From: a virus
Taxonomy: Duplodnaviria; Caudoviricetes
Length of the DNA: 64,000 nucleotides
Strand: one strand, 5' to 3'
IMG/VR virus record: IMGVR_UViG_3300032269_001670
Coordinates: 1 to 64,000 of that record
The stretch's first letter is position 1. Each line of letters opens with the position of its first letter. The translations under genes were made by a program, and so were the position numbers. Below, piece after piece: positions 10,910-26,936 of the stretch. Below the pieces are notes generated by a model, which searched no databases, was not told the origin of the DNA, and worked only from the letters and a program-made list of their open reading frames with translations.

Positions 10910-11377
10910 CTAGCGGTAGTCGCTCGGCATCACCGGATTGTGGAGTGAGTCAATCCACACCGCGCCAATAAGCGGCGTATCCAAGAGCGTAGACTCAATG
11001 GCCTCAAAGACCTCGGCAGCGATAGGCGACGACTCGCCACCGGTAGCGTCTACGAAGTTAGCGAACGCGACCGGATCGCCGGAGAAGATCGCCGCCTGAG
11101 CGATAGTGATGGTCTTCCACGAATCAGCCTCGTAGTATGACCAGAACGAGCCGCCGGTCTCGTCGTCAGCCCAGCCAATCAGCACCGCAAGAGCGGTGCC
11201 GTAGGTTGGCACATAAGCGATGAGGTCGTCGCCGTCGCCGTAGCGAACATAGGCGCGATAGGCCGCGTCAGCCGGTAGCGTCTGGCGGCAAGCAGGGCAG
11301 ACACCCTGCGACTGGTTGCCGAGGTACTTCTGAACCCACTTCGTCGCCGGAGTGGTCTGGTCAGTTGCGTTGCTCAT
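10910..11377 (-). CDS. hypothetical protein with CxxC
   Basis: 155 aa from ATG at 11377; RBS AGGAAGGAA. Confidence 0.75.
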   Translation of the reverse strand: MSNATDQTTPATKWVQKYLGNQSQGVCPACRQTLPADAAYRAYVRYGDGDDLIAYVPTYGTALAVLIGWADDETGGSFWSYYEADSWKTITIAQAAIFSGDPVAFANFVDATGGESSPIAAEVFEAIESTLLDTPLIGAVWIDSLHNPVMPSDYR

Positions 11378-11426
11378 CTGTTCCTTCCTTCCTGTGCCTG
11401 TGCCGTTGCCAAGTGGCAACAGGTAC

Positions 11427-11455
11427 AAGGTAAGGCCTACCGCGCCAGAAGTCAA
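11427..11455 (-). promoter_or_regulatory. sigma70-type promoter
   Basis: TTGACT-N17-TACCTT. Confidence 0.75.
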
Positions 11456-11563
11456 ACGCCGTTGCGGAGAGCGCAACCGGTAGCGGGTGAGATGTCGCTC
11501 GTGGGGTGTGGGGTGCGGGGTCGCCGGTACAGGTACGGCCTGAATAATGAACTGATAACAACA

Positions 11564-11607
11564 CAAAAAAAAGAGGCCGCCCCCGGCACAGATCGGGGAC
11601 GGCCTCG
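11564..11607 (-). terminator. intrinsic terminator (cassette I)
   Basis: GAGGCCG...CGGCCTC stem followed by T8 on minus strand. Confidence 0.85.
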
Positions 11608-11626
11608 TAGATAACCGGAGCGACGA

Positions 11627-11995
11627 CTACATCGGGAACCCGCCGAACTCTAACGCCTTGATGATGGCGGCGAGTTCGTCCTCGGTGAAACCGCGCAGCT
11701 CGTCGTCGTGAACGAGTGAGCACGTACCGACAAGTCCATCACCGAACAGGTACGCCGGCGCGGACTTAGTAGCGAGAGCCAGAACATCAGACGCGGTGAG
11801 GTTCACGGCCGGCTCAGACTTGAGCAGTCCCTCCTCGTCGGCAATGAGCGCAACCGGCACGCCGCCGATCTTGCCGGAGCCGACTACCTCGACCATCTCG
11901 CACTCAGTCGCAGCGTAGAGGCCGGCGAGTCCCTGACCACGAGCGACGACGGACACCTTGCCCGGAGCAATCCTGAGAACCTGTGAGTCGTTCAT
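11627..11995 (-). CDS. DUF3846-like protein
   Basis: 122 aa; VEVV...LIADEEGLLKSEPAVN..AS...LVG...GFTEDE pattern. Confidence 0.65.
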   Translation of the reverse strand: MNDSQVLRIAPGKVSVVARGQGLAGLYAATECEMVEVVGSGKIGGVPVALIADEEGLLKSEPAVNLTASDVLALATKSAPAYLFGDGLVGTCSLVHDDELRGFTEDELAAIIKALEFGGFPM

Positions 11996-12041
11996 TGTTT
12001 CCTTCCTTTCCTGTGCTTCATCGGGAAGTCCCGACACAGAG

Positions 12042-12069
12042 AGAATACATTACCCACGCCGGAAGTCAA
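12042..12069 (-). promoter_or_regulatory. sigma70-type promoter
   Basis: TTGACT-N16-TATTCT. Confidence 0.7.
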
Positions 12070-12166
12070 CACCCCCCCCCTAAGGCCGGCCTGTCCAAGT
12101 CGAGCGTGTAGCTGGGGGCGTGGGGGGTTGGGGGGTCTGGTACAGGTACGGCCTGATAAATGACCC

Positions 12167-12209
12167 AAAGAAAAACCCCCTCACAGATGCCCGTCTGCGA
12201 GGGGGTGTT
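12167..12209 (-). terminator. intrinsic terminator (cassette J)
   Basis: ACCCCCTC.CAGA...TCTG.GAGGGGGT with TTTTTCTTT tail. Confidence 0.85.
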
Positions 12210-12236
12210 AGACCGGCGGAAAGGATCGCCGGCGTA

Positions 12237-12518
12237 TTATTCGGGGCGCACGAAACGGCCTTCCTCTCCGTTCTCCATCAAGACGAAGTCGGCAAGATGA
12301 CGCGCGATAGCCTCAGCGTCATCATCACGACCAAGCACCGGATAGCCGGCGGTACAACCCTGCGAGTAGTGGTAGCCGTCAAGGTCAAGCTTCCACAGCG
12401 TTCCGCCAAAGTTCACGCCGTCCTCGCTCATCAGCGCGACCCACGACTCGGAGTCAAGGTCAATGCGAAGGTATCCGGCCTCGTCCATCTCGTAAGCCTC
12501 AGTTCCGGTAAGTGCCAT
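12237..12518 (-). CDS. hypothetical protein
   Basis: 93 aa; RBS GAGAGGAGAGG. Confidence 0.7.
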   Translation of the reverse strand: MALTGTEAYEMDEAGYLRIDLDSESWVALMSEDGVNFGGTLWKLDLDGYHYSQGCTAGYPVLGRDDDAEAIARHLADFVLMENGEEGRFVRPE

Positions 12519-12533
12519 TTGTCCTCTCCTCTC

Positions 12534-12707
12534 TCAACCTGCCGGCGCGCACATCGCGTCGGTACAAGGCCAGCCTAGCAGAACCGCGACCAATGCCGCA
12601 AGTGCCGCAAGATACAATGCGCGACGGAGCAGCTGCTCGCGTCGCTGCTGCCGAACCCACGCCTCAGTTTCGCGCAGGTATTCGGCCTTCGTAATCAAAC
12701 TACGCAT
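12534..12707 (-). CDS. small single-pass membrane protein
   Basis: 57 aa from ATG at 12707; hydrophobic ALYLAALAALVAVLLG. Confidence 0.6.
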   Translation of the reverse strand: MRSLITKAEYLRETEAWVRQQRREQLLRRALYLAALAALVAVLLGWPCTDAMCAPAG

Positions 12708-12942
12708 TATCGTTCTCCTCATCAAGCGGATACCCTGCCGACTCCAAGAGGTAGACCGCGCACTCCGCAATCGCGCTCTTATAGTCGCCGAAGGTAGCGC
12801 GCTCTCCGGGGTAGAAGTCGTCAAACGCAATGTCGGGCAGGTCATCAGCCGAGAGGCCAACCTTCACCTCAACCTTGCGCGATACGGCCTCAATGAACTT
12901 CTCAAAGGGAAGCTCAATCATCTCGTTCACATCACGGCTCAT
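12700..12942 (-). CDS. hypothetical protein
   Basis: 80 aa; RBS GAAGGAAGGAG. Confidence 0.7.
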   Translation of the reverse strand: MSRDVNEMIELPFEKFIEAVSRKVEVKVGLSADDLPDIAFDDFYPGERATFGDYKSAIAECAVYLLESAGYPLDEENDNA

Positions 12943-12984
12943 CAGATACTCCTTCCTTCCATACCGGCAAGTGCCGGCTACGCC

Positions 12985-13014
12985 AGACTACACCCGACGC
13001 TAGGCCTGAGTCAA
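12985..13014 (-). promoter_or_regulatory. sigma70-type promoter
   Basis: TTGACT-N18-TAGTCT, overlapping the 3' end of the upstream ORF. Confidence 0.75.
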
Positions 13015-13221
13015 GGCCTCAGTTGGGTCAAACACATCAGGCCGGCCTTCTGCCACCCAAGCGTCAAGCTCCGTGCGCCACTTGTACGGCCGCTCAATGA
13101 GGTCAAGCAACAAGTCGCATCGGTCATTGGTCTCCGCATACTCCGCATACCCGCCGTGAACCATTGCGCGAGCAAACGCCAACACATCAGATTCGTCGTA
13201 AGGCCAATCAAATCGCCCCAT
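13000..13221 (-). CDS. hypothetical protein
   Basis: 73 aa from ATG at 13221; RBS AGGAAGGA. Confidence 0.65.
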   Translation of the reverse strand: MGRFDWPYDESDVLAFARAMVHGGYAEYAETNDRCDLLLDLIERPYKWRTELDAWVAEGRPDVFDPTEALTQA

Positions 13222-13360
13222 TATCTCGTCCTTCCTGTACGCCAATCTCCTCTAAGGCCGATACCTGAGCGTCAGCAAAGCACTCCGCACAGATACGCGA
13301 TTCGTACTGCCGGTCGTCCTCTACTTCACTCCCGCACCAAGAACAAGCGTTCCTACTCAC
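13208..13360 (-). CDS. small zinc-finger-like protein
   Basis: GTG start after AAGGAG; CSWC...CAEC. Confidence 0.55.
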   Translation of the reverse strand: MSRNACSWCGSEVEDDRQYESRICAECFADAQVSALEEIGVQEGRDNGAI

Positions 13361-13721
13361 CCGATACTCCTTCCTTATGAGCCGCATACTCATCGGCTAC
13401 CCTACGAGCATACTGCTTGGCTTCCTCAAAGTCAATCAGCACTTCGCCGTCCTCGTTCTCCCCCCAGACGACCTCGAACCACGGATTATGCGCCCACTCA
13501 ATCAGGCCGCTCTCCTCGGCAGCGGCGAGCTTCTCGTCGGTATCAAGCCCCTTCTCGTCAAGGTCGCTCGTGTACCGGAGAATACTGGTTTCACCAGACG
13601 GCTCTCGGTAGACAACGCGCATCTCTCCGGCTCGGTACACAACGACTTCCTTGTCGGCGGTGAACCATACTGGGTCAGAATCGTGGTACTGCGTAAAGAA
13701 GGCCGCGTCGTTCCTGCTCAT
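13353..13721 (-). CDS. hypothetical acidic protein
   Basis: 122 aa; start overlaps upstream stop. Confidence 0.65.
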   Translation of the reverse strand: MSRNDAAFFTQYHDSDPVWFTADKEVVVYRAGEMRVVYREPSGETSILRYTSDLDEKGLDTDEKLAAAEESGLIEWAHNPWFEVVWGENEDGEVLIDFEEAKQYARRVADEYAAHKEGVSGE

Positions 13722-14026
13722 TAGTTCCACCCAACTTCCTGCCACGCGACAAAGCACTCGTCGCACAAATCCACCGACTCCTCATAGGCGTTCTCATAGC
13801 CGTTCCACCCGTAGCTGAAAGGCCGCGCCTTCACTCCTGCGTGCGACCACTCAGGCCACCGGTTCGCGTTCTCGCAAGTGCGGAACTCATCAAGGCCGTT
13901 GTTGTTCTGGTGCGTACCATCGCCGCAATCAACGCAAGTACCACCAGACAACGGAACCTCACAACCGCAACGGCACGAGCAGGTACTCTCCTGCGGGTCG
14001 CCAACCGGAATCTCAAACAAGTCCAT
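13721..14026 (-). CDS. Cys-rich hypothetical protein
   Basis: 101 aa from ATG at 14026; CSCRCGC, CVDC, CDEC. Confidence 0.7.
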   Translation of the reverse strand: MDLFEIPVGDPQESTCSCRCGCEVPLSGGTCVDCGDGTHQNNNGLDEFRTCENANRWPEWSHAGVKARPFSYGWNGYENAYEESVDLCDECFVAWQEVGWN

Positions 14027-14069
14027 CTGTCCTCTCCTTCCACTACACCGGCAATCACCGGTACAACGA

Positions 14070-14098
14070 ACACTACACCCAACGATTCCTGTCGTCAA
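14070..14098 (-). promoter_or_regulatory. sigma70-type promoter
   Basis: TTGACG-N17-TAGTGT. Confidence 0.75.
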
Positions 14099-14103
14099 GT
14101 ATG

Positions 14104-14538
14104 AAGGGGAGCCGACCAGACACCACATCTGGCCGACCCCCCCAGCTTTCGCGCTACTGACGCTTATCCCCTTTCACAGAGGCAACCTTCGGCTCTCGCC
14201 TGATTGCTGATACCGGCCACCCTGATGGTTAGTCCAAATGCCCCGTATCTTTATCGTCGCGGGCAGTTCGTCTATCTGCCAACTATCCGGCCTCTACCCG
14301 GAACGGATTCATTATGTCCCGGAACCCCTGAGAGCCGTCGCTCCCAGAGATTCCGGTAGGTTGGTCGCTTCCACCGGTATTGGCCATAGCCCCGGCTTCC
14401 GCTTCCCAAGCTTCCTCTCCCGCATTTACAGCAGCGATTAGAGGCCATCACTCGCCTGAACCACTTCGCATTTTTTGGCTGCGTGCTTTGTTCCTAACAC
14501 TCTCACCTAGTCGTCGCGTTCCTAGGATTGCTCCGACA
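14104..14538 (-). ncRNA. candidate large structured non-coding RNA (about 430 nt)
   Basis: No minus-strand ORF of 60 aa or more; promoter TTGACG-N17-GAAACT at 14544-14572; many hand-folded hairpins, several with GNRA loops; long 3' hairpin. Confidence 0.55.
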
Positions 14539-14668
14539 TACGAAGTTTCTCACACCGGTATCACCTCGTCAAGTAAGTTGCGGATAAGGTTTGTGTAAGG
14601 TATCTTAACTATTGGGGGTTTGGGGGTTGCGCCGGTATACGGCCTGGATAATGAATAAGTCGAGCTAC

Positions 14669-14707
14669 AAAGAAAAACCCCCGGTGGGAGGACTCCACCG
14701 GGGGGAT
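14669..14707 (-). terminator. intrinsic terminator downstream of the RadC-like gene
   Basis: CCCCCGGTGG...CCACCGGGGG with TTTTTCTTT tail. Confidence 0.85.
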
Positions 14708-14747
14708 AGGACTCGTGGGGAGGAGGACACCCCCCTACGAGTCGTAG

Positions 14748-15242
14748 CTAGTTCAGGGTGCTGTCCTCAAACATACTCGGCTTCTGTGAGCGGATACTCG
14801 TGAACGCTCCGTTCGCTCCGACGACCAGATGGTCAAGGAACTGAACATCAAGCAGCGTGGCGGCCTTCGCCACATCAGCCGTAAGCCTAATGTCCTCATC
14901 AGACGGCTGATGGTCGCCCGAAGGGTGATTGTGAACCAACGCCAGACCGACCGCGCCCATCATCAGCGCAGAGCGGAGCAGTTCGCCAATCCGCACCGAA
15001 GTTCCGGTCGCCGTACCAGAGTAGATACGATGAATCCCAAGCAGGTTGTTGCGCCCACCGAACGACACGACGAACAAGGCCTCACTCATCTCCGCGTCAG
15101 CGAACTCGCGGAACAGAGCCGCAAGGTCGCGTGGACTCGTGATGACCGCCGACTTGTTGCTGCGTGAGGTGCGCTTCACCGAATACTCATAGGCGTTCCA
15201 CATACCAGTTTCGGCAATGCTATTAGCCTTCCTCTTTGCCAT
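14748..15242 (-). CDS. RadC-like JAB/MPN domain protein
   Basis: ITSPRD, EALFVV, VHNHPSGDHQPSDEDIRLT, LDHLVVG. Confidence 0.9.
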   Translation of the reverse strand: MAKRKANSIAETGMWNAYEYSVKRTSRSNKSAVITSPRDLAALFREFADAEMSEALFVVSFGGRNNLLGIHRIYSGTATGTSVRIGELLRSALMMGAVGLALVHNHPSGDHQPSDEDIRLTADVAKAATLLDVQFLDHLVVGANGAFTSIRSQKPSMFEDSTLN

Positions 15243-15250
15243 AAGTCCTC

Positions 15251-15595
15251 CTAGTAATCCTTGACGAGAATCTTTTTGTCCTCGTTCTCTGGCAACTCTA
15301 CCACCAATCCGTAGTAGTCGCAATACTGCTTGATGAGGTCGAGTGCGCGATGCCCACCAGACCACCCCAGATAGCACTCATCTGAGTCGGTATCGCGGTT
15401 CTGGTCGTGGTAAAAGAAATACACCGGATCGCTAATGTTGTCCGCATCAGCCATCAGACTAAGCTCCGCTGCGGTACAGGTATTACAGCACCACCGACCA
15501 ATCTTTTCTGGCCCATACACATAAGCCTCGGTGTCGCGGAACATCGTCATCAGAAGGTCGTCTAACGAATCCCAGAAGTCAATGTACGGCCTCAT
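15251..15595 (-). CDS. hypothetical protein (possibly DUF6891-like)
   Basis: 114 aa; FFYHDQ...YLGW...GLVVE...KILV. Confidence 0.6.
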   Translation of the reverse strand: MRPYIDFWDSLDDLLMTMFRDTEAYVYGPEKIGRWCCNTCTAAELSLMADADNISDPVYFFYHDQNRDTDSDECYLGWSGGHRALDLIKQYCDYYGLVVELPENEDKKILVKDY

Positions 15596-15795
15596 CAGTA
15601 AGTCCCCTCTCCGCCGCAGCCACACTCGCCCTCGTAGCAGGTTGCCCCTTCCGAAAGCAGCATCGCGCAGCCATACTTCTCGGAGCGGTGTTCCTCGCAC
15701 GGATCGCAGTACCACTGAACGATACCGGAAGCGTTGTTATCAGCCCAATAGCCGTTCTCTACGACCTGCTTACAGGTGTCGCATTGCGTTCCCAT
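15595..15795 (-). CDS. small Cys-rich protein
   Basis: 66 aa; CDTC, CDPC, CYEGECGC. Confidence 0.65.
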   Translation of the reverse strand: MGTQCDTCKQVVENGYWADNNASGIVQWYCDPCEEHRSEKYGCAMLLSEGATCYEGECGCGGEGTY

Positions 15796-15843
15796 TGTCC
15801 TCTCCTCTCCTACTAGCTAGATAGCCGAACCCGGCTACGCCTA

Positions 15844-15872
15844 ACACTAAACGATAAACGCAGCCGGGTCAA
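15844..15872 (-). promoter_or_regulatory. sigma70-type promoter
   Basis: TTGACC-N17-TAGTGT. Confidence 0.75.
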
Positions 15873-15875
15873 ACC

Positions 15876-16385
15876 CTACTTCTTGGCGAGCATCCCCTCA
15901 ATGCGCTCGGTCATCTTGCGCTCCTGATCCAGCAGGAACCACGGCTCCACAATCGCGGAGTGCGTATAGGTGCGCTGGCCTGAGAGCCGGAACATCTTGC
16001 CGCCAACGAACTCCCACTTCCAGAAGTCGCCGTCCTCGCCCTGCCACTCGTAGTCGCCATCCTCAATGAACGGCGCAGCAGCCGCGAAAAACACTTCTTC
16101 CTGACCAATCTTGTTCTCGTAGCAGGTGATCACGAGATCGCCATTGCTATCGTCAATGATCGTCTCAAAGCCGAGCGCAACGAATACGGCCTGTGTATCA
16201 GGGAGCGTTCGCAAGTCCTGTGGCATCCACGAGAACCACGAAGAAGTCCTTTCCCCGCCGCCGTATGATCCGCCACGCTTCGCGTTATCCGGAGCTTCTT
16301 GAAGCGCCATCATTGCCTCATACGCCTTGCCAAGATTTTCCGCCTTGATACGAAGGCTTCCGTTTCCTGAAATGTAGTATCCCAT
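15876..16385 (-). CDS. hypothetical protein
   Basis: 169 aa from ATG at 16385; RBS GAAGGAGTAGGA. Confidence 0.75.
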   Translation of the reverse strand: MGYYISGNGSLRIKAENLGKAYEAMMALQEAPDNAKRGGSYGGGERTSSWFSWMPQDLRTLPDTQAVFVALGFETIIDDSNGDLVITCYENKIGQEEVFFAAAAPFIEDGDYEWQGEDGDFWKWEFVGGKMFRLSGQRTYTHSAIVEPWFLLDQERKMTERIEGMLAKK

Positions 16386-16429
16386 TGTCCTACTCCTTCC
16401 TACTTCCTCACGGCAAGTGCCGCAGAGCA

Positions 16430-16458
16430 ATACTAATCTAGTGCGTTGTATCGGTCAA
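16430..16458 (-). promoter_or_regulatory. sigma70-type promoter
   Basis: TTGACC-N17-TAGTAT. Confidence 0.75.
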
Positions 16459-16702
16459 GTACGCGAATCCAATGGTCGGTGCGGGTGTGCCGGTCAATGA
16501 GCGTGTACTTGATGCCAAGCTCCCCAAGAGAGCGCACGAGCAATGATGCGTCAGCATCCTCCTCCAAGAACAGGCGGTCGTCCTTCTGGTACGAGTACGA
16601 ACTGATAAGCCCCTGAATGCCGAGCATCTCTACAAGCTCGCGCTTCACCTCGAGCCATCCGTGCGATGGGTCGTGGTGATAAGTGATAACCAAGTCCTCC
16701 AT
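16433..16702 (-). CDS. conserved-looking hypothetical protein
   Basis: HDPSHGWLEV...ISSYSY...FLEEDADA; RBS TAGGAGG. Confidence 0.75.
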   Translation of the reverse strand: MEDLVITYHHDPSHGWLEVKRELVEMLGIQGLISSYSYQKDDRLFLEEDADASLLVRSLGELGIKYTLIDRHTRTDHWIRVLDRYNALD

Positions 16703-16775
16703 AGAACCTCCTACCGGCTCGTAAGCCGCAATACATACACGGTCAGAAGCCCGACCAGCAACCAGAATAGCACGA

Positions 16776-17219
16776 TCACAATACTTCGCAACCCTTCAGG
16801 TCGGAGCAGATGTGAAGGTATTCCTGCCAATGGCGAACTTCCTCAATCCACCCCTGAACCTCACCATCCTTGTCGATAAGAAACTGCGCTCCGTCGTATT
16901 CCTTCATAGCCTCAATCACCGCCGCGCGAATCTCAAGGTCATCCTTCTTGGCAAGAATCTCCCAAGCATCAAAGCACTCCCAATCACGGATGACCGTACC
17001 GGAGTTATCCCACAAGGCCTCATTGAGAAAGGCCACGCCAAGAAGCTCGTTGAGCTTGCGAAGGATACCCATACCGCCAATGTTCATCCGGTAATAGGCC
17101 GTGTTGCGCCAATAGTCCGGAGCTTCGTCGTTGTCGCCAAAAATCCACGGCGTTGCCTTCTTAGCAAACGCTAGCGACTTCTCCCTGTCCTCGCGCATAG
17201 AGTAAATGTCGTAGCCCAT
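16776..17219 (-). CDS. hypothetical protein
   Basis: 147 aa; MGYDIY...AYYRMNIGGM; RBS TAGGAGG. Confidence 0.75.
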   Translation of the reverse strand: MGYDIYSMREDREKSLAFAKKATPWIFGDNDEAPDYWRNTAYYRMNIGGMGILRKLNELLGVAFLNEALWDNSGTVIRDWECFDAWEILAKKDDLEIRAAVIEAMKEYDGAQFLIDKDGEVQGWIEEVRHWQEYLHICSDLKGCEVL

Positions 17220-17261
17220 ACTTCCTCCTACAACTTCCTACCGGAAAGCTCCGGCAGAGCG

Positions 17262-17291
17262 AGCATACACCCTCCCTACCGGAGTCGTCAA
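17262..17291 (-). promoter_or_regulatory. sigma70-type promoter
   Basis: TTGACG-N18-TATGCT. Confidence 0.75.
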
Positions 17292-17295
17292 GCAC

Positions 17296-17553
17296 CTACG
17301 CGCGCACCTTGCTGGCCTCGTACCGAGTGGACATCGCAAGCTTCTGTTCGTCTGACCAAGGCGGAACCTGATAGTCAAGCGGTTTGCGTGATTCCTCGTA
17401 CGCCCAGTCAATCCATCCTGAAAGCTCCACGAGATCGCGGTTCTCCCTGATGTATCGACGGATGCGCTTGCTGTATGCCGTATGACGCTCTAATGCCTTG
17501 CGGAACCGGACATACGCCCGGTAATCGTCCTCGGTATACAGCTGATCACTCAC
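17296..17553 (-). CDS. hypothetical protein
   Basis: 85 aa; GTG start overlaps upstream stop. Confidence 0.6.
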   Translation of the reverse strand: MSDQLYTEDDYRAYVRFRKALERHTAYSKRIRRYIRENRDLVELSGWIDWAYEESRKPLDYQVPPWSDEQKLAMSTRYEASKVRA

Positions 17554-18002
17554 TTCACTGACCTCCGTACCGGCTGAACTCCGGCCCGACGAAGCACGGT
17601 GTTGATGTATTGCGCGCTGACATCGTAGCTCTTGCCGATGAGCACAAGACGCTCACCGGCGCGATACCGGGTGACGACATCCTGTACGGCATCAGTAGTG
17701 AACTTCGTGCGCTTGCTCGTCGAAAGGCCAGCCGTAAAGAGTGCGTTCCTGATCGTGCTAGTCGAGCAGTTGAACTTCTTTGTGGCCTCAGTAAGTGTTG
17801 GCGAGTGTTCGCGGTAATACGACACGATCTCGTCGTAGTCATACTTGCGAAGCCGCGTGCTATTCAGAATCGGCGGACGATTGACGCCCATCTTTGCGAC
17901 GATCTGCTGAACCCGCTGTCGGGTGATGCCGTACTTTTCCGCGACGGACTGGAGTGTCATGCCACTAAGGTAATCAGTGGCAATGAGATTATTTCGTTCC
18001 AT
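17550..18002 (-). CDS. multi-HTH DNA-binding protein
   Basis: Three HTH-like repeats: TLQSVAEKYGITRQRVQQIV, TLTEATKKFNCSTSTIRNAL, RLVLIGKSYDVSAQYINTVL. Confidence 0.75.
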   Translation of the reverse strand: MERNNLIATDYLSGMTLQSVAEKYGITRQRVQQIVAKMGVNRPPILNSTRLRKYDYDEIVSYYREHSPTLTEATKKFNCSTSTIRNALFTAGLSTSKRTKFTTDAVQDVVTRYRAGERLVLIGKSYDVSAQYINTVLRRAGVQPVRRSVK

Positions 18003-18786: not shown

Positions 18787-19584
18787 TCAACCTCCTACTA
18801 CGCCGCCAAAGTTCTCATCGCAGAACGACTCGAAGGCGGTCATTGGAATCGTATCATAGTCGCGCTCGTAGCTACGCGAGCCATCCTCCTCCTTGTACCA
18901 CGCCTCGTCTGGGAGAGAGTCGTGCTCGCTGCTGTATTCCTGCCGTGAGATTTCGTTGCCCGAGTGATACATCACCTCACCCGCAAAGCCCATACCCGCC
19001 TCACAATAGCGATGCGAAATGGTCAGCGTCGGGAACAGCCCAGAGAGCTCGTGAGCCACAGGCTCCGCAGGACTCCACGCCGTCTCAAAGTTATACGAGG
19101 TGCGACCATCAGTAGCAAGGTCGTCGGCGCGGTCGTTCCACACCTCACCGCAGTTCCACTTCGTCCCCCAGTTGGCAACATTCCAGTTGTACCACCAGTC
19201 GGGGTGCGACGAAATCTCGCCGAGCTTGTGCGTCGGGCAGACCGATGAACCGCCGAATCCGGCAGCAACAAAGTCCTTGATCGTGCCGTTGTCGAGCACT
19301 TCCTTCTCAATGAGTAAGCCGTTCACTTCCCAATGGCCTTCAGCCTTCTCGAAGCCGTCCTCGCCCCACTCGCCGACCTGCGGCTTCGTCTCAACCCAAA
19401 CCTTCTGACAGCCGCACTGGAAGTCATTCTGCGTCTCTGCCGCAGCATAGATAGGGCTATCCGGTGGCGGCACAATCTTGGCAAAGTCGAAGTCGCCGTT
19501 CTCTCCCTTTACTAACGCAATGAGCCGGACGATCTCTGCCTCATCGCCCGTGATGTCCAGTTGATTTACGCACCAGTTTGGCAT
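18787..19584 (-). CDS. YubB/DUF1281 ferredoxin-like domain protein
   Basis: MPNWC.N.L.ITG, FDFAKIVP.P, WY.WNVANWGTKWN, FETAWSP, YCEAGMGFAG. Confidence 0.8.
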   Translation of the reverse strand: MPNWCVNQLDITGDEAEIVRLIALVKGENGDFDFAKIVPPPDSPIYAAAETQNDFQCGCQKVWVETKPQVGEWGEDGFEKAEGHWEVNGLLIEKEVLDNGTIKDFVAAGFGGSSVCPTHKLGEISSHPDWWYNWNVANWGTKWNCGEVWNDRADDLATDGRTSYNFETAWSPAEPVAHELSGLFPTLTISHRYCEAGMGFAGEVMYHSGNEISRQEYSSEHDSLPDEAWYKEEDGSRSYERDYDTIPMTAFESFCDENFGGVVGG

Positions 19585-26609: not shown

Positions 26610-26936
26610 ATGTGCAACGAATACAACGGTTGGGTTAATTGGGAAACTTGGAACATGGCGCTCTGGATTGGCGAAAGCGATGACGAAAGCATTTTGAGTC
26701 AAGCAAACCGAGAGATTGAAGATTTTACTGGAGAAACGGAAATGGACATCACCGGAGCTACCTGCTCGCTGGCAGAATGGCTACAGACATATTGCGAAGA
26801 AGTGTATCTTGGTCATCTAAACCAGGATGACTTGCGCGGTCCGGCCGCTGATGCCATCTACAGCAGCTACCTTCCTAAGGTAGAATGGCATGATATTGCT
26901 AAACATTACATTCAGGAGGCCTTAAATGAAGCTTGA
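26610..26936 (+). CDS. conserved-looking phage hypothetical protein
   Basis: YNGWVNWETWNMALWI motif. Confidence 0.75.
   Translation: MCNEYNGWVNWETWNMALWIGESDDESILSQANREIEDFTGETEMDITGATCSLAEWLQTYCEEVYLGHLNQDDLRGPAADAIYSSYLPKVEWHDIAKHYIQEALNEA

Follow-up and report, generated by a model that had tools for sequence, protein, structure and literature searches.

The minus strand at positions 14104-14572 of the DNA analysed here (‘the window’, 64,000 nucleotides (nt), being the first 64 kb of the 85,707-bp IMG/VR virus record IMGVR_UViG_3300032269_001670) encodes a real, conserved and structured non-coding RNA. The source is an uncultured freshwater phage of ~86 kb, whose record carries direct terminal repeats and is rated 100% complete; the RNA is present in its genome as a single copy, and sits between the cassette of a RadC-like gene and the next cassette along. 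Some 40 related contigs, from phages or metagenomes, conserve it with numerous compensatory changes in its base pairs, and their comparison indicates that the slot is made up of two predicted RNA genes of ~200 nt each, evolutionarily separable, that are joined in this phage (hereafter the 5′ and 3′ modules). An earlier, sequence-only reading had proposed a structured non-coding RNA at this position, which covariation and strand-specific folding now bear out; its further proposal of one 430-nt class gives way to two separable RNAs that have promoters and terminators of their own in relatives, the 3′ one being found alone in complete genomes.

Folded as a minus-strand RNA of 442 nt, the slot has a minimum free energy of -184.3 kcal/mol (z = -4.94), and none of 100 dinucleotide-shuffled controls folded as well; a failure to beat such controls had been named in the sequence-only reading as grounds for refuting it. 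By contrast, the plus strand is unremarkable (z = 0.03); such an asymmetry between strands would be expected if many G-U pairs matter, and points to an RNA of the minus strand. The signal is not confined to one half of the slot, as the two modules folded alone give z = -4.36 (5′) and z = -3.18 (3′).

As had been claimed, the minus strand holds no open reading frame (ORF) of 60 amino acids (aa) or more between 14128 and 14748, the longest being one of 59 aa with a GTG start (14272-14451); on the sense strand of the homologues the longest ORFs with a start codon are of 30-59 aa, in a frame that is inconsistent from one homologue to the next. There are, however, ORFs of 67 and 72 aa on the plus strand of the window and antisense ORFs of 120-165 aa in relatives, and from these one might argue that the slot has no RNA function at all, being either a hidden small protein gene, on one strand or the other, or neutral recombination filler between cassettes with hairpins that matter at the DNA level only. 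The antisense frame carries no codon-position signal in homologues, with 20, 21 and 18 variable columns at codon positions 1, 2 and 3, respectively; its start codon is often missing, and indels (of 1, 2, 14 and 73 nt among close homologues, and thus not multiples of three) break the frame. We therefore reject a protein-coding gene on either strand, there being no frame-conserved ORF, no concentration of substitutions at third positions and frame-breaking indels, and with it the coding potential that the sequence-only reading had held open for the 67- and 72-aa ORFs. As to neutral filler, the strand asymmetry points to G-U pairs, which only RNA of this strand can form, and compensatory changes are extensive; we regard the absence of an RNA function as very improbable indeed. 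The antisense strand at 14238-14598 (plus) is pyrimidine-rich and is open for 67-72 aa here and for 120-165 aa in four relatives (L005, L010, L012 and L020); the purine-rich sense strand accounts for the long open antisense frames in relatives, and gene callers would probably annotate a spurious Pro/Leu/Arg/Ser-rich protein antisense to the RNA.

Relatives were identified by way of the 101-aa Cys-rich ORF that lies downstream of, and outside, the RNA (13721-14026, minus strand) and which served as an anchor, giving 26 related viral loci; BLASTN and nhmmer searches upstream of that ORF then found the RNA in most of the 26, and motif scans added further viral contigs together with about a dozen metagenome contigs. 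The RNA retains 76-91% nucleotide identity, including in cases where identity of the neighbouring protein falls to 58%. Three relatives recognised by the downstream ORF (L022, L023 and L026) have neither module in the stretch of DNA compared. The carriers found here are virus records and environmental metagenome contigs only, several of them from lake samples.

Each module was aligned separately, the 3′ module from 32 distinct sequences. Across 31 distinct sequences, 94.8% of the cells of the 3′ alignment are paired, against 79.3% in shuffles and 29-43% in controls with slid partners, and 21 of 31 pairs change on both sides; the covariation score is 0.484, compared with 0.195 in shuffles and at most 0.11 in slid controls. 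For the 5′ module (18 distinct homologues), the corresponding values are 95.4% against 84.4% in shuffles, with double-sided changes at 19 of 33 pairs, and a score of 0.441 compared with 0.225 in shuffles and at most 0.18 in slid controls. No shuffle out of 500 reached the score of either module, a count that is not to be taken as a probability as the aligned sequences are kin. Realignment of 37 hits by a covariance model of the 3′ module gave 96.5% paired cells and double changes at 25 of 35 pairs, although this realignment is itself fitted to the model.

That the modules are separable is seen in close relatives, most of which carry 73 extra bases exactly between the 17-bp hairpin that closes the 5′ module (Ht) and the AUCCG that follows it. 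This linker (L005:2636-2708; its equivalent in the window is the junction 14311/14312) comprises a small hairpin, then a terminator-like hairpin, GGGAGUCAGGCC-UUCG-GGCUUGACUCCC, and then UUACUCUUU; it also holds a promoter-like site, TTGACT-N17-TACTCT, which is too weak to be called by scan and has its TTGACT box inside the 3′ arm of the terminator-like hairpin. The linker is cleanly deleted in the window phage and in L014, L015 and L040, such that the modules are contiguous. In distant relatives the modules are sometimes 0.8-2 kb apart; in L024 (83 kb) and L025 (33 kb), for example, a 94-aa ORF stops 2 nt ahead of the 3′ module, and 800 nt beyond the latter comes the 5′ module, which has a TTGACA promoter and a U-tailed terminator to itself. 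In five others (L027, L045, L046, L054 and L057) each module, as read by eye, is an ORF-less promoter-to-terminator unit. In L054 the scan called three promoter-like sites against an expectation of 0.3, of which two immediately precede the two modules, and it placed a terminator behind the 3′ module; the hairpin and U-run belonging to the 5′ module itself were read by eye and not called. Relatives such as L054 thus present a promoter-like site upstream, a terminator downstream and no ORF between, as expected of independent small-RNA genes.

Could the slot nonetheless be one indivisible RNA class of 430 nt, with the separate copies as its decayed or split derivatives? The contiguity of the modules in the window, L014, L015 and L040, with a 17-bp hairpin lacking a U-tail between them, fits such an account, but it is commoner for the modules to have separate promoters and terminators, an arrangement seen in the more divergent lineages, both modules show purifying and compensatory selection when they are apart as well, and the 3′ module stands alone in complete 43-kb and 46-kb phage genomes in which no 5′ module is detectable by BLAST; we hold it to be decidedly improbable. 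Every contig with a 5′ module has a 3′ module too, wherever the sequence extends far enough. We propose instead that two independent small-RNA genes became joined by loss of the 73-nt linker with its terminator-like and promoter-like features, and that in this phage they would give rise to one primary transcript of ~435 nt, running from ~14540 to ~14105, as a consequence of the lost linker and of an Ht hairpin with no U-tail.

The 5′ module (14312-14540, minus strand; ~229 nt) is predicted to fold into about six helices: a GNRA hairpin, Ha (14525-14534), followed by Hb (14506-14526), Hd (14467-14483), He (14414-14444), Hf (14373-14396) and, closing the module, Ht (14319-14356), which has a GACG loop at 14336-14339. 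For the first 40 nt either Ha and Hb or an alternative GUCGG/CCGAC helix can be drawn, the CCUAG/CUAGG and GUCGG/CCGAC pairings being indistinguishable in that neither changes on both sides. The covariation comes mainly from Hf and the 17-bp Ht, the latter with double-sided changes at 12 of 15 pairs and a stem that varies freely below an invariant CGACGG tip. The 18 distinct sequences fall into two clades (A and B), and He illustrates the divergence between them: the window reads CCUCU..UCGC / GCGG-G-AGAGG where clade B reads CCGCU..UGCC / GGCG-G-AGCGG, with three compensatory positions between the clades and a fourth inside clade A. While Ht has no U-tail in the window, clade-B copies continue with UUUAUU or UAUUUGUU, and there the hairpin with its U-run probably acts as an intrinsic terminator.

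Transcription of the 5′ module is predicted to start from a conserved, TG-extended promoter of sigma-70 type at 14544-14572 (minus strand; sequence read), the TTGACG-N17-GAAACT site named in the sequence-only reading, with its -35 box TTGACG at 14567-14572, a 17-nt spacer and its -10 box GAAACT at 14544-14549. All 13 distinct close homologues keep the TTGAC and TGTGAGAAACT blocks (with TG at -15/-14) around a spacer of variable sequence, which is the pattern of a real promoter, and clade-B homologues have TTGACA-N17-GATACT, TAGTAT or GAGAAT in the same place.

The 3′ module (core at 14135-14311, minus strand; ~177 nt) follows a consensus order that opens with H1 (14283-14305), UU, H2 (14262-14280), CGN, the GACG that forms the 5′ strand of a long-range helix, P1, then AUAAG, H3 (14209-14249) and CA; it continues with H4 (14182-14207), H5 (14168-14181), a second AUAAG, the CGUC of the 3′ strand of P1, H6 (14144-14155) and H7 (about 14105-14143). 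In the window P1 joins GACG at 14255-14258 with CGUC at 14159-14162, flanked by AUAAA(G) and AUAAG. H3 is a variable hairpin with a semi-conserved CUAACCA tip, and in 21 variants it is still a hairpin, with a basal stem that is different in each; H4 has an internal loop and a GNRA loop (GAGA here), H5 mostly a GNRA loop (GUGAAA in the window) and H6 a GCGANA loop (GCGAAA in the window). In the model, P1 would close a three-hairpin junction in which two hairpins carry GNRA loops; two further hairpins come before the junction, and the GCGANA hairpin and H7 after it. H7 is a long terminal hairpin with the apical sequence UGUGGUG, which is kept on different stems in four subgroups, and is followed in the window by a weak U-tail, UUCAUACUU; a clear U-run follows H7 in relatives, the hairpin being a U-tailed terminator in the 80-kb phages and tail-less in the 43-46-kb phages, and H7 is the probable terminator of the fused transcript here.

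Set against these alignments, 8 of the 11 hairpins folded by hand in the sequence-only reading are supported. Compensatory changes are found in GGA-GCAA-UCC, in the 10-bp core of the 17-bp hairpin, in GGCAG/CUGCC, in GCAAUC[GGC-GAGA-GCC]GGUUGC, in CCUCU/AGGGG and in the GCGAAA hairpin; CCUAG/CUAGG has only wobble-preserving changes in its favour, and the long 3′ hairpin is kept at its position in every variant folded, despite two unrelated stem sequences. Two did not survive the comparison: CCGGU..ACCGG, where relatives read CCGGC...ACUGA, and CCGGGA..UUCCGG, which joins two different helices and between whose arms most relatives carry the 73-nt insertion.

The genomic settings of the 3′ module bear on what it might do. 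Where it has no promoter of its own, in five phage subgroups, it begins 0-6 nt downstream of the stop codon of an ORF, the five ORFs being unrelated; two of the contigs concerned are the complete 43-kb and 46-kb genomes. It always ends in a long hairpin, which in several groups is a terminator. Together with its location in an array of promoter/terminator cassettes, this could mean that the modules, and the 3′ one especially, are cis-acting 3′-end or leader structures, serving to protect the upstream mRNA from exonucleases, to strengthen or modulate termination, or to modify the polymerase for read-through of the many cassette terminators in the manner of HK022 put. That said, at least four lineages carry the module as a free-standing, ORF-less unit with its own promoter, such that there is no mRNA to stabilise, and read-through would be unneeded, as the next cassette has a promoter of its own; moreover, a ~175-nt fold with an invariant junction is far more elaborate than known stabilisers or the ~70-nt put RNAs. 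A cis-acting element is accordingly a minor possibility in our view, though one to be taken seriously. The put RNA of HK022 is a processive antiterminator of two stem-loops, ~70 nt in all, that is made from an early promoter and works only in cis; the likeness lies in an early-promoter transcript that is structured, phage-encoded and followed by terminators, in a terminator-dense region, but there is no similarity between the two, and the next cassettes here have their own promoters.

A second point of comparison is provided by bacterial small RNAs such as CpxQ and SroC, which derive from 3′ untranslated regions (UTRs) and share the terminator of the upstream mRNA; these are short, act through a linear seed and use Hfq, and small-RNA families are known that have both 3′-UTR-derived and independent-gene forms. 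The 3′ module resembles them in running from just after a stop codon to the terminal hairpin of the transcript in several phages while being an independent gene in others, but differs in being a folded junction of ~175 nt with no obvious seed. The 265-aa ORF at 18787-19584 (minus strand), with an Api92-like ferredoxin-like C-terminal domain (PF18406), lies 4.2 kb from the RNA in the window, and an ORF of the same PF18406 type (L053:4326-5153) directly precedes the 3′ module in the L053, L058 and L234 phages, which illustrates the re-sorting of cassettes.

Neither module corresponds to a known RNA. Rfam 15 (whose families include ROOL, GOLLD, HEARO, OLE, raiA, RNase P, tmRNA, 6S, SRP, group I/II introns, small ribozymes and riboswitches) gave no cmscan hit in the region at gathering thresholds, in keeping with the sequence-only reading's suggestion that no known class is involved; at E <= 10, the window copy gave one sub-threshold match, of a miRNA model to the terminal hairpin, and for a clade-B module pair and a distant 3′ module all matches, on hairpins and flanks, were likewise below threshold. 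An ORF-less self-splicing intron, also raised in that reading, is rejected: there are no flanking exons, the 5′ end of the RNA is either a transcription start or lies past a stop codon, beyond its 3′ end come a terminator and the next promoter, and the group I/II intron models matched none of three divergent representatives. The stretches CACGCAGCCAA and CCUAACCA resemble a part of the Tetrahymena group I intron, which we take as chance, as there is no intron-model hit and the two lie in different modules. A tmRNA or tRNA-like element is likewise rejected, ARAGORN giving only two tRNAs, at 4.6-5.3 kb and thus ~9 kb from the modules. RNAs C and D of T4 are stable small RNAs with no ORF and no known function, located in a tRNA cluster and subject to tRNA-type processing; the modules are similarly ORF-less small RNAs of a tRNA-carrying phage genome, but have their own promoters and terminators and lie in an early cassette array away from the tRNA genes.

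The junction is complex and multi-stemmed, with GNRA loops and with unpaired nucleotides that never vary, and might also be that of a catalyst or a sensor; the 3′ module would then be a new ribozyme of self-cleaving or processing type that is thereby released from the upstream mRNA, or a riboswitch-like sensor that governs read-through of the terminal hairpin. Its conservation begins sharply at (A/U)UCCG, directly 3′ of the stop codons, and in the 43-46-kb phages the tail-less terminal hairpin H7 is followed by a ribosome-binding site, both of which would suit such a role. Against this, no ribozyme or riboswitch model matched (Rfam), transcripts driven by a promoter start at the module itself and leave nothing for 5′ self-cleavage to remove, no conserved pairing of an alternative terminator/antiterminator kind was noticed, and a terminator follows the module, with own promoters usual for the downstream genes; on balance we consider a ribozyme or sensor quite unlikely.

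Further afield, a pattern scan of 185,579 species genomes returned at least 120 matches, all of which, among the matches listed, were chance by nhmmer, and a relaxed viral scan that allowed change in helix P1 gave 48 new loci, none of them a true homologue. The Garicola koreensis chromosome (L354:1501-1655) has GACGAUAAGGA...AUAAGCGUCA in correct spacing and scores 20.6 bits with the RNA model, but the match lies inside a 558-aa ORF and is rejected as a chance look-alike; it stands as a warning for pattern-based searches. E. coli genomes showed no similarity to the RNA, and cultured phages no DNA match to the RNA region.

Relation to ROOL and GOLLD, to which the sequence-only reading had pointed, found no support either: no homology was detected, and each module is far shorter, ROOL and GOLLD being several-fold longer than ~200 nt. 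ROOL and GOLLD, and also raiA and OLE, are orphan large structured non-coding RNAs linked to phages or prophages (Rfam; cryo-electron microscopy in bioRxiv 10.1101/2024.12.08.627333); they share with the modules a multi-helix non-coding fold, detection by covariation, carriage by phages and the lack of a known biochemical function, but have no match to them in sequence or structure, the modules being only ~200 nt each. ROOL, GOLLD, OLE and raiA form larger RNA particles, and the idea that the modules, or copies of one module, likewise associate through their conserved loops into an assembly made of RNA only, with the fusion tethering the partners, has something to commend it: the loops of both terminator hairpins are conserved while the stems vary freely, GACG in the loop of Ht is the complement of CGUC, which is invariant in the 3′ module, and contigs with a 5′ module all have a 3′ module where the sequence is long enough. 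Candidate contacts would be GACG in Ht, CGUC in P1, the UGUGGUG or CUAG-containing loops in H7, and the GNRA loops. These candidates never vary, however, and so afford no test by covariation; duplex prediction between full-length 5′ and 3′ modules was uninformative for sequences this long, and the 3′ module occurs without the 5′ module in complete genomes, all of which leaves such an assembly rather improbable. More ambitiously, the 3′ module with its twin-AUAAG junction might represent a new functional RNA class (a ribozyme, a sensor of a small molecule or ion, or the core of an RNA-only or RNA-protein particle onto which the 5′ module docks by its invariant GACG loop) that is used early to disable or redirect a host process, the fusion then being a natural single-chain complex of two RNAs; this we consider unlikely.

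Synthesising these observations, the explanation that we favour, tentatively and at slightly less than an even chance, is that early in infection the modules, as a pair of stable RNAs, act in trans and bind or sequester a macromolecular partner. Both occur as ORF-less promoter-to-terminator units, from which we infer that the RNA itself is the product; the same architecture speaks against a role that is purely in cis for an upstream mRNA, and also against self-cleavage at the 5′ end. A classical riboswitch or antiterminator is disfavoured by the promoters of the next cassettes. Invariant nucleotides at the junction, together with the GNRA loops and with terminator hairpins whose loops are conserved, point to a specific three-dimensional fold that is recognised by something. 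The RNAs would be made from host-type promoters early in infection, would be stable and specifically folded, and would act by binding or sequestering a protein or other macromolecule of host or phage.

Several points weigh against this proposal. The trans-acting role is deduced from gene architecture alone, and the placement of the promoterless 3′ module, invariably 0-6 nt past a stop codon, fits a cis role for the upstream mRNA too. P1 and both AUAAG strands are invariant, such that they are conserved but their pairing is unproven by covariation. The generic sigma-70 scan missed the site at 14544-14572, as its -10 box matches only three of six consensus positions. Finally, no partner protein emerged from the genes common to four types of phage with the 3′ module, DUF7249 being the sole named family, and the ORFs that flank the modules, being unrelated or without functional assignment, gave no lead to a partner. 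DUF7249 proteins (MCxEYNGWxNxETW...) are encoded at 26610-26936 (plus strand) in the window and at G001:12980-13333, G003:15476-15763 and G004:37767-38138; the gene is 0.6-1.8 kb downstream of the RNA in the smaller phages, and 12 kb off and on the other strand here.

The surroundings of the slot are, as had been suggested, a promoter-rich region of cassettes. Position and promoter type make early expression alongside host-takeover genes, which the sequence-only reading also put forward, plausible. Upstream of, and outside, the RNA lies the RadC-like gene, which encodes a JAB domain (14748-15377, minus strand; Pfam PF04002, E = 2.7e-29), with its terminator called by the terminator scan at 14678-14704. 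The 3′ boundary of the RNA unit is set by the promoter of the next cassette (14070-14098, minus strand; TTGACG-N17-TAGTGT, read from the sequence and kept in relatives). An 11-bp hairpin, ACUUGACGAC-AGGAAU-CGUUGGGUGU, built from the -35 box and spacer of this promoter (14075-14102, minus strand), is predicted in several relatives too, and is possible only in read-through RNA or single-stranded DNA. The 101-aa ORF of that cassette has CxC, CxC and CxxC groups with a zinc-ribbon-like look, and matches nothing in Pfam or PHROG; identity is 88-96% in close relatives, while distant ones keep only its C-terminal YGWNGYENAYE...CDxC part.

As to the host, the -10 boxes at 11000-18000 and in the related loci fit TAnnnT and not TATAAT (TATGCT, TAGTAT, TATTCT, TAGTGT and TAGAAT), the mechanical ORF list for 11000-18000 has many GTG and TTG starts, and the terminase and tail proteins have weak matches to Microbacterium and Curtobacterium phages; together these hint at an actinobacterial host. 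The terminase is less than 30% identical to that of any cultured phage, and a tail-fibre search likewise gave no host lead.

The modules may best be regarded as two new orphan families within a known kind, the structured phage non-coding RNAs. Phages are known to harbour many structured RNAs, but to our knowledge few are so elaborately folded, and hardly any has been assigned a role. Fremin, Bhatt and Kyrpides (2023; PMC10690425) catalogued 10,006 structured RNA candidates from IMG/VR, without names or functions, and one or both modules may already be among them; the source of viral contigs and the covariation evidence are alike, and what is worked out here is the anatomy of two modules, their fusion and the different genomic settings in which they occur.

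We thus arrive at two compact and well-supported families of ~200 nt, with architectures that are directly testable and for which natural experiments are already present: fused and separate modules, copies with their own promoter and copies in a 3′ UTR, and copies with and without the partner module. The addition of both families to RNA family databases would lead to the correct annotation of freshwater phages, in place of a gap or a spurious antisense ORF. Should it prove true that the RNAs sequester a host factor, or act as catalysts, they would add an RNA-based tool to the repertoire by which phages take over their hosts.

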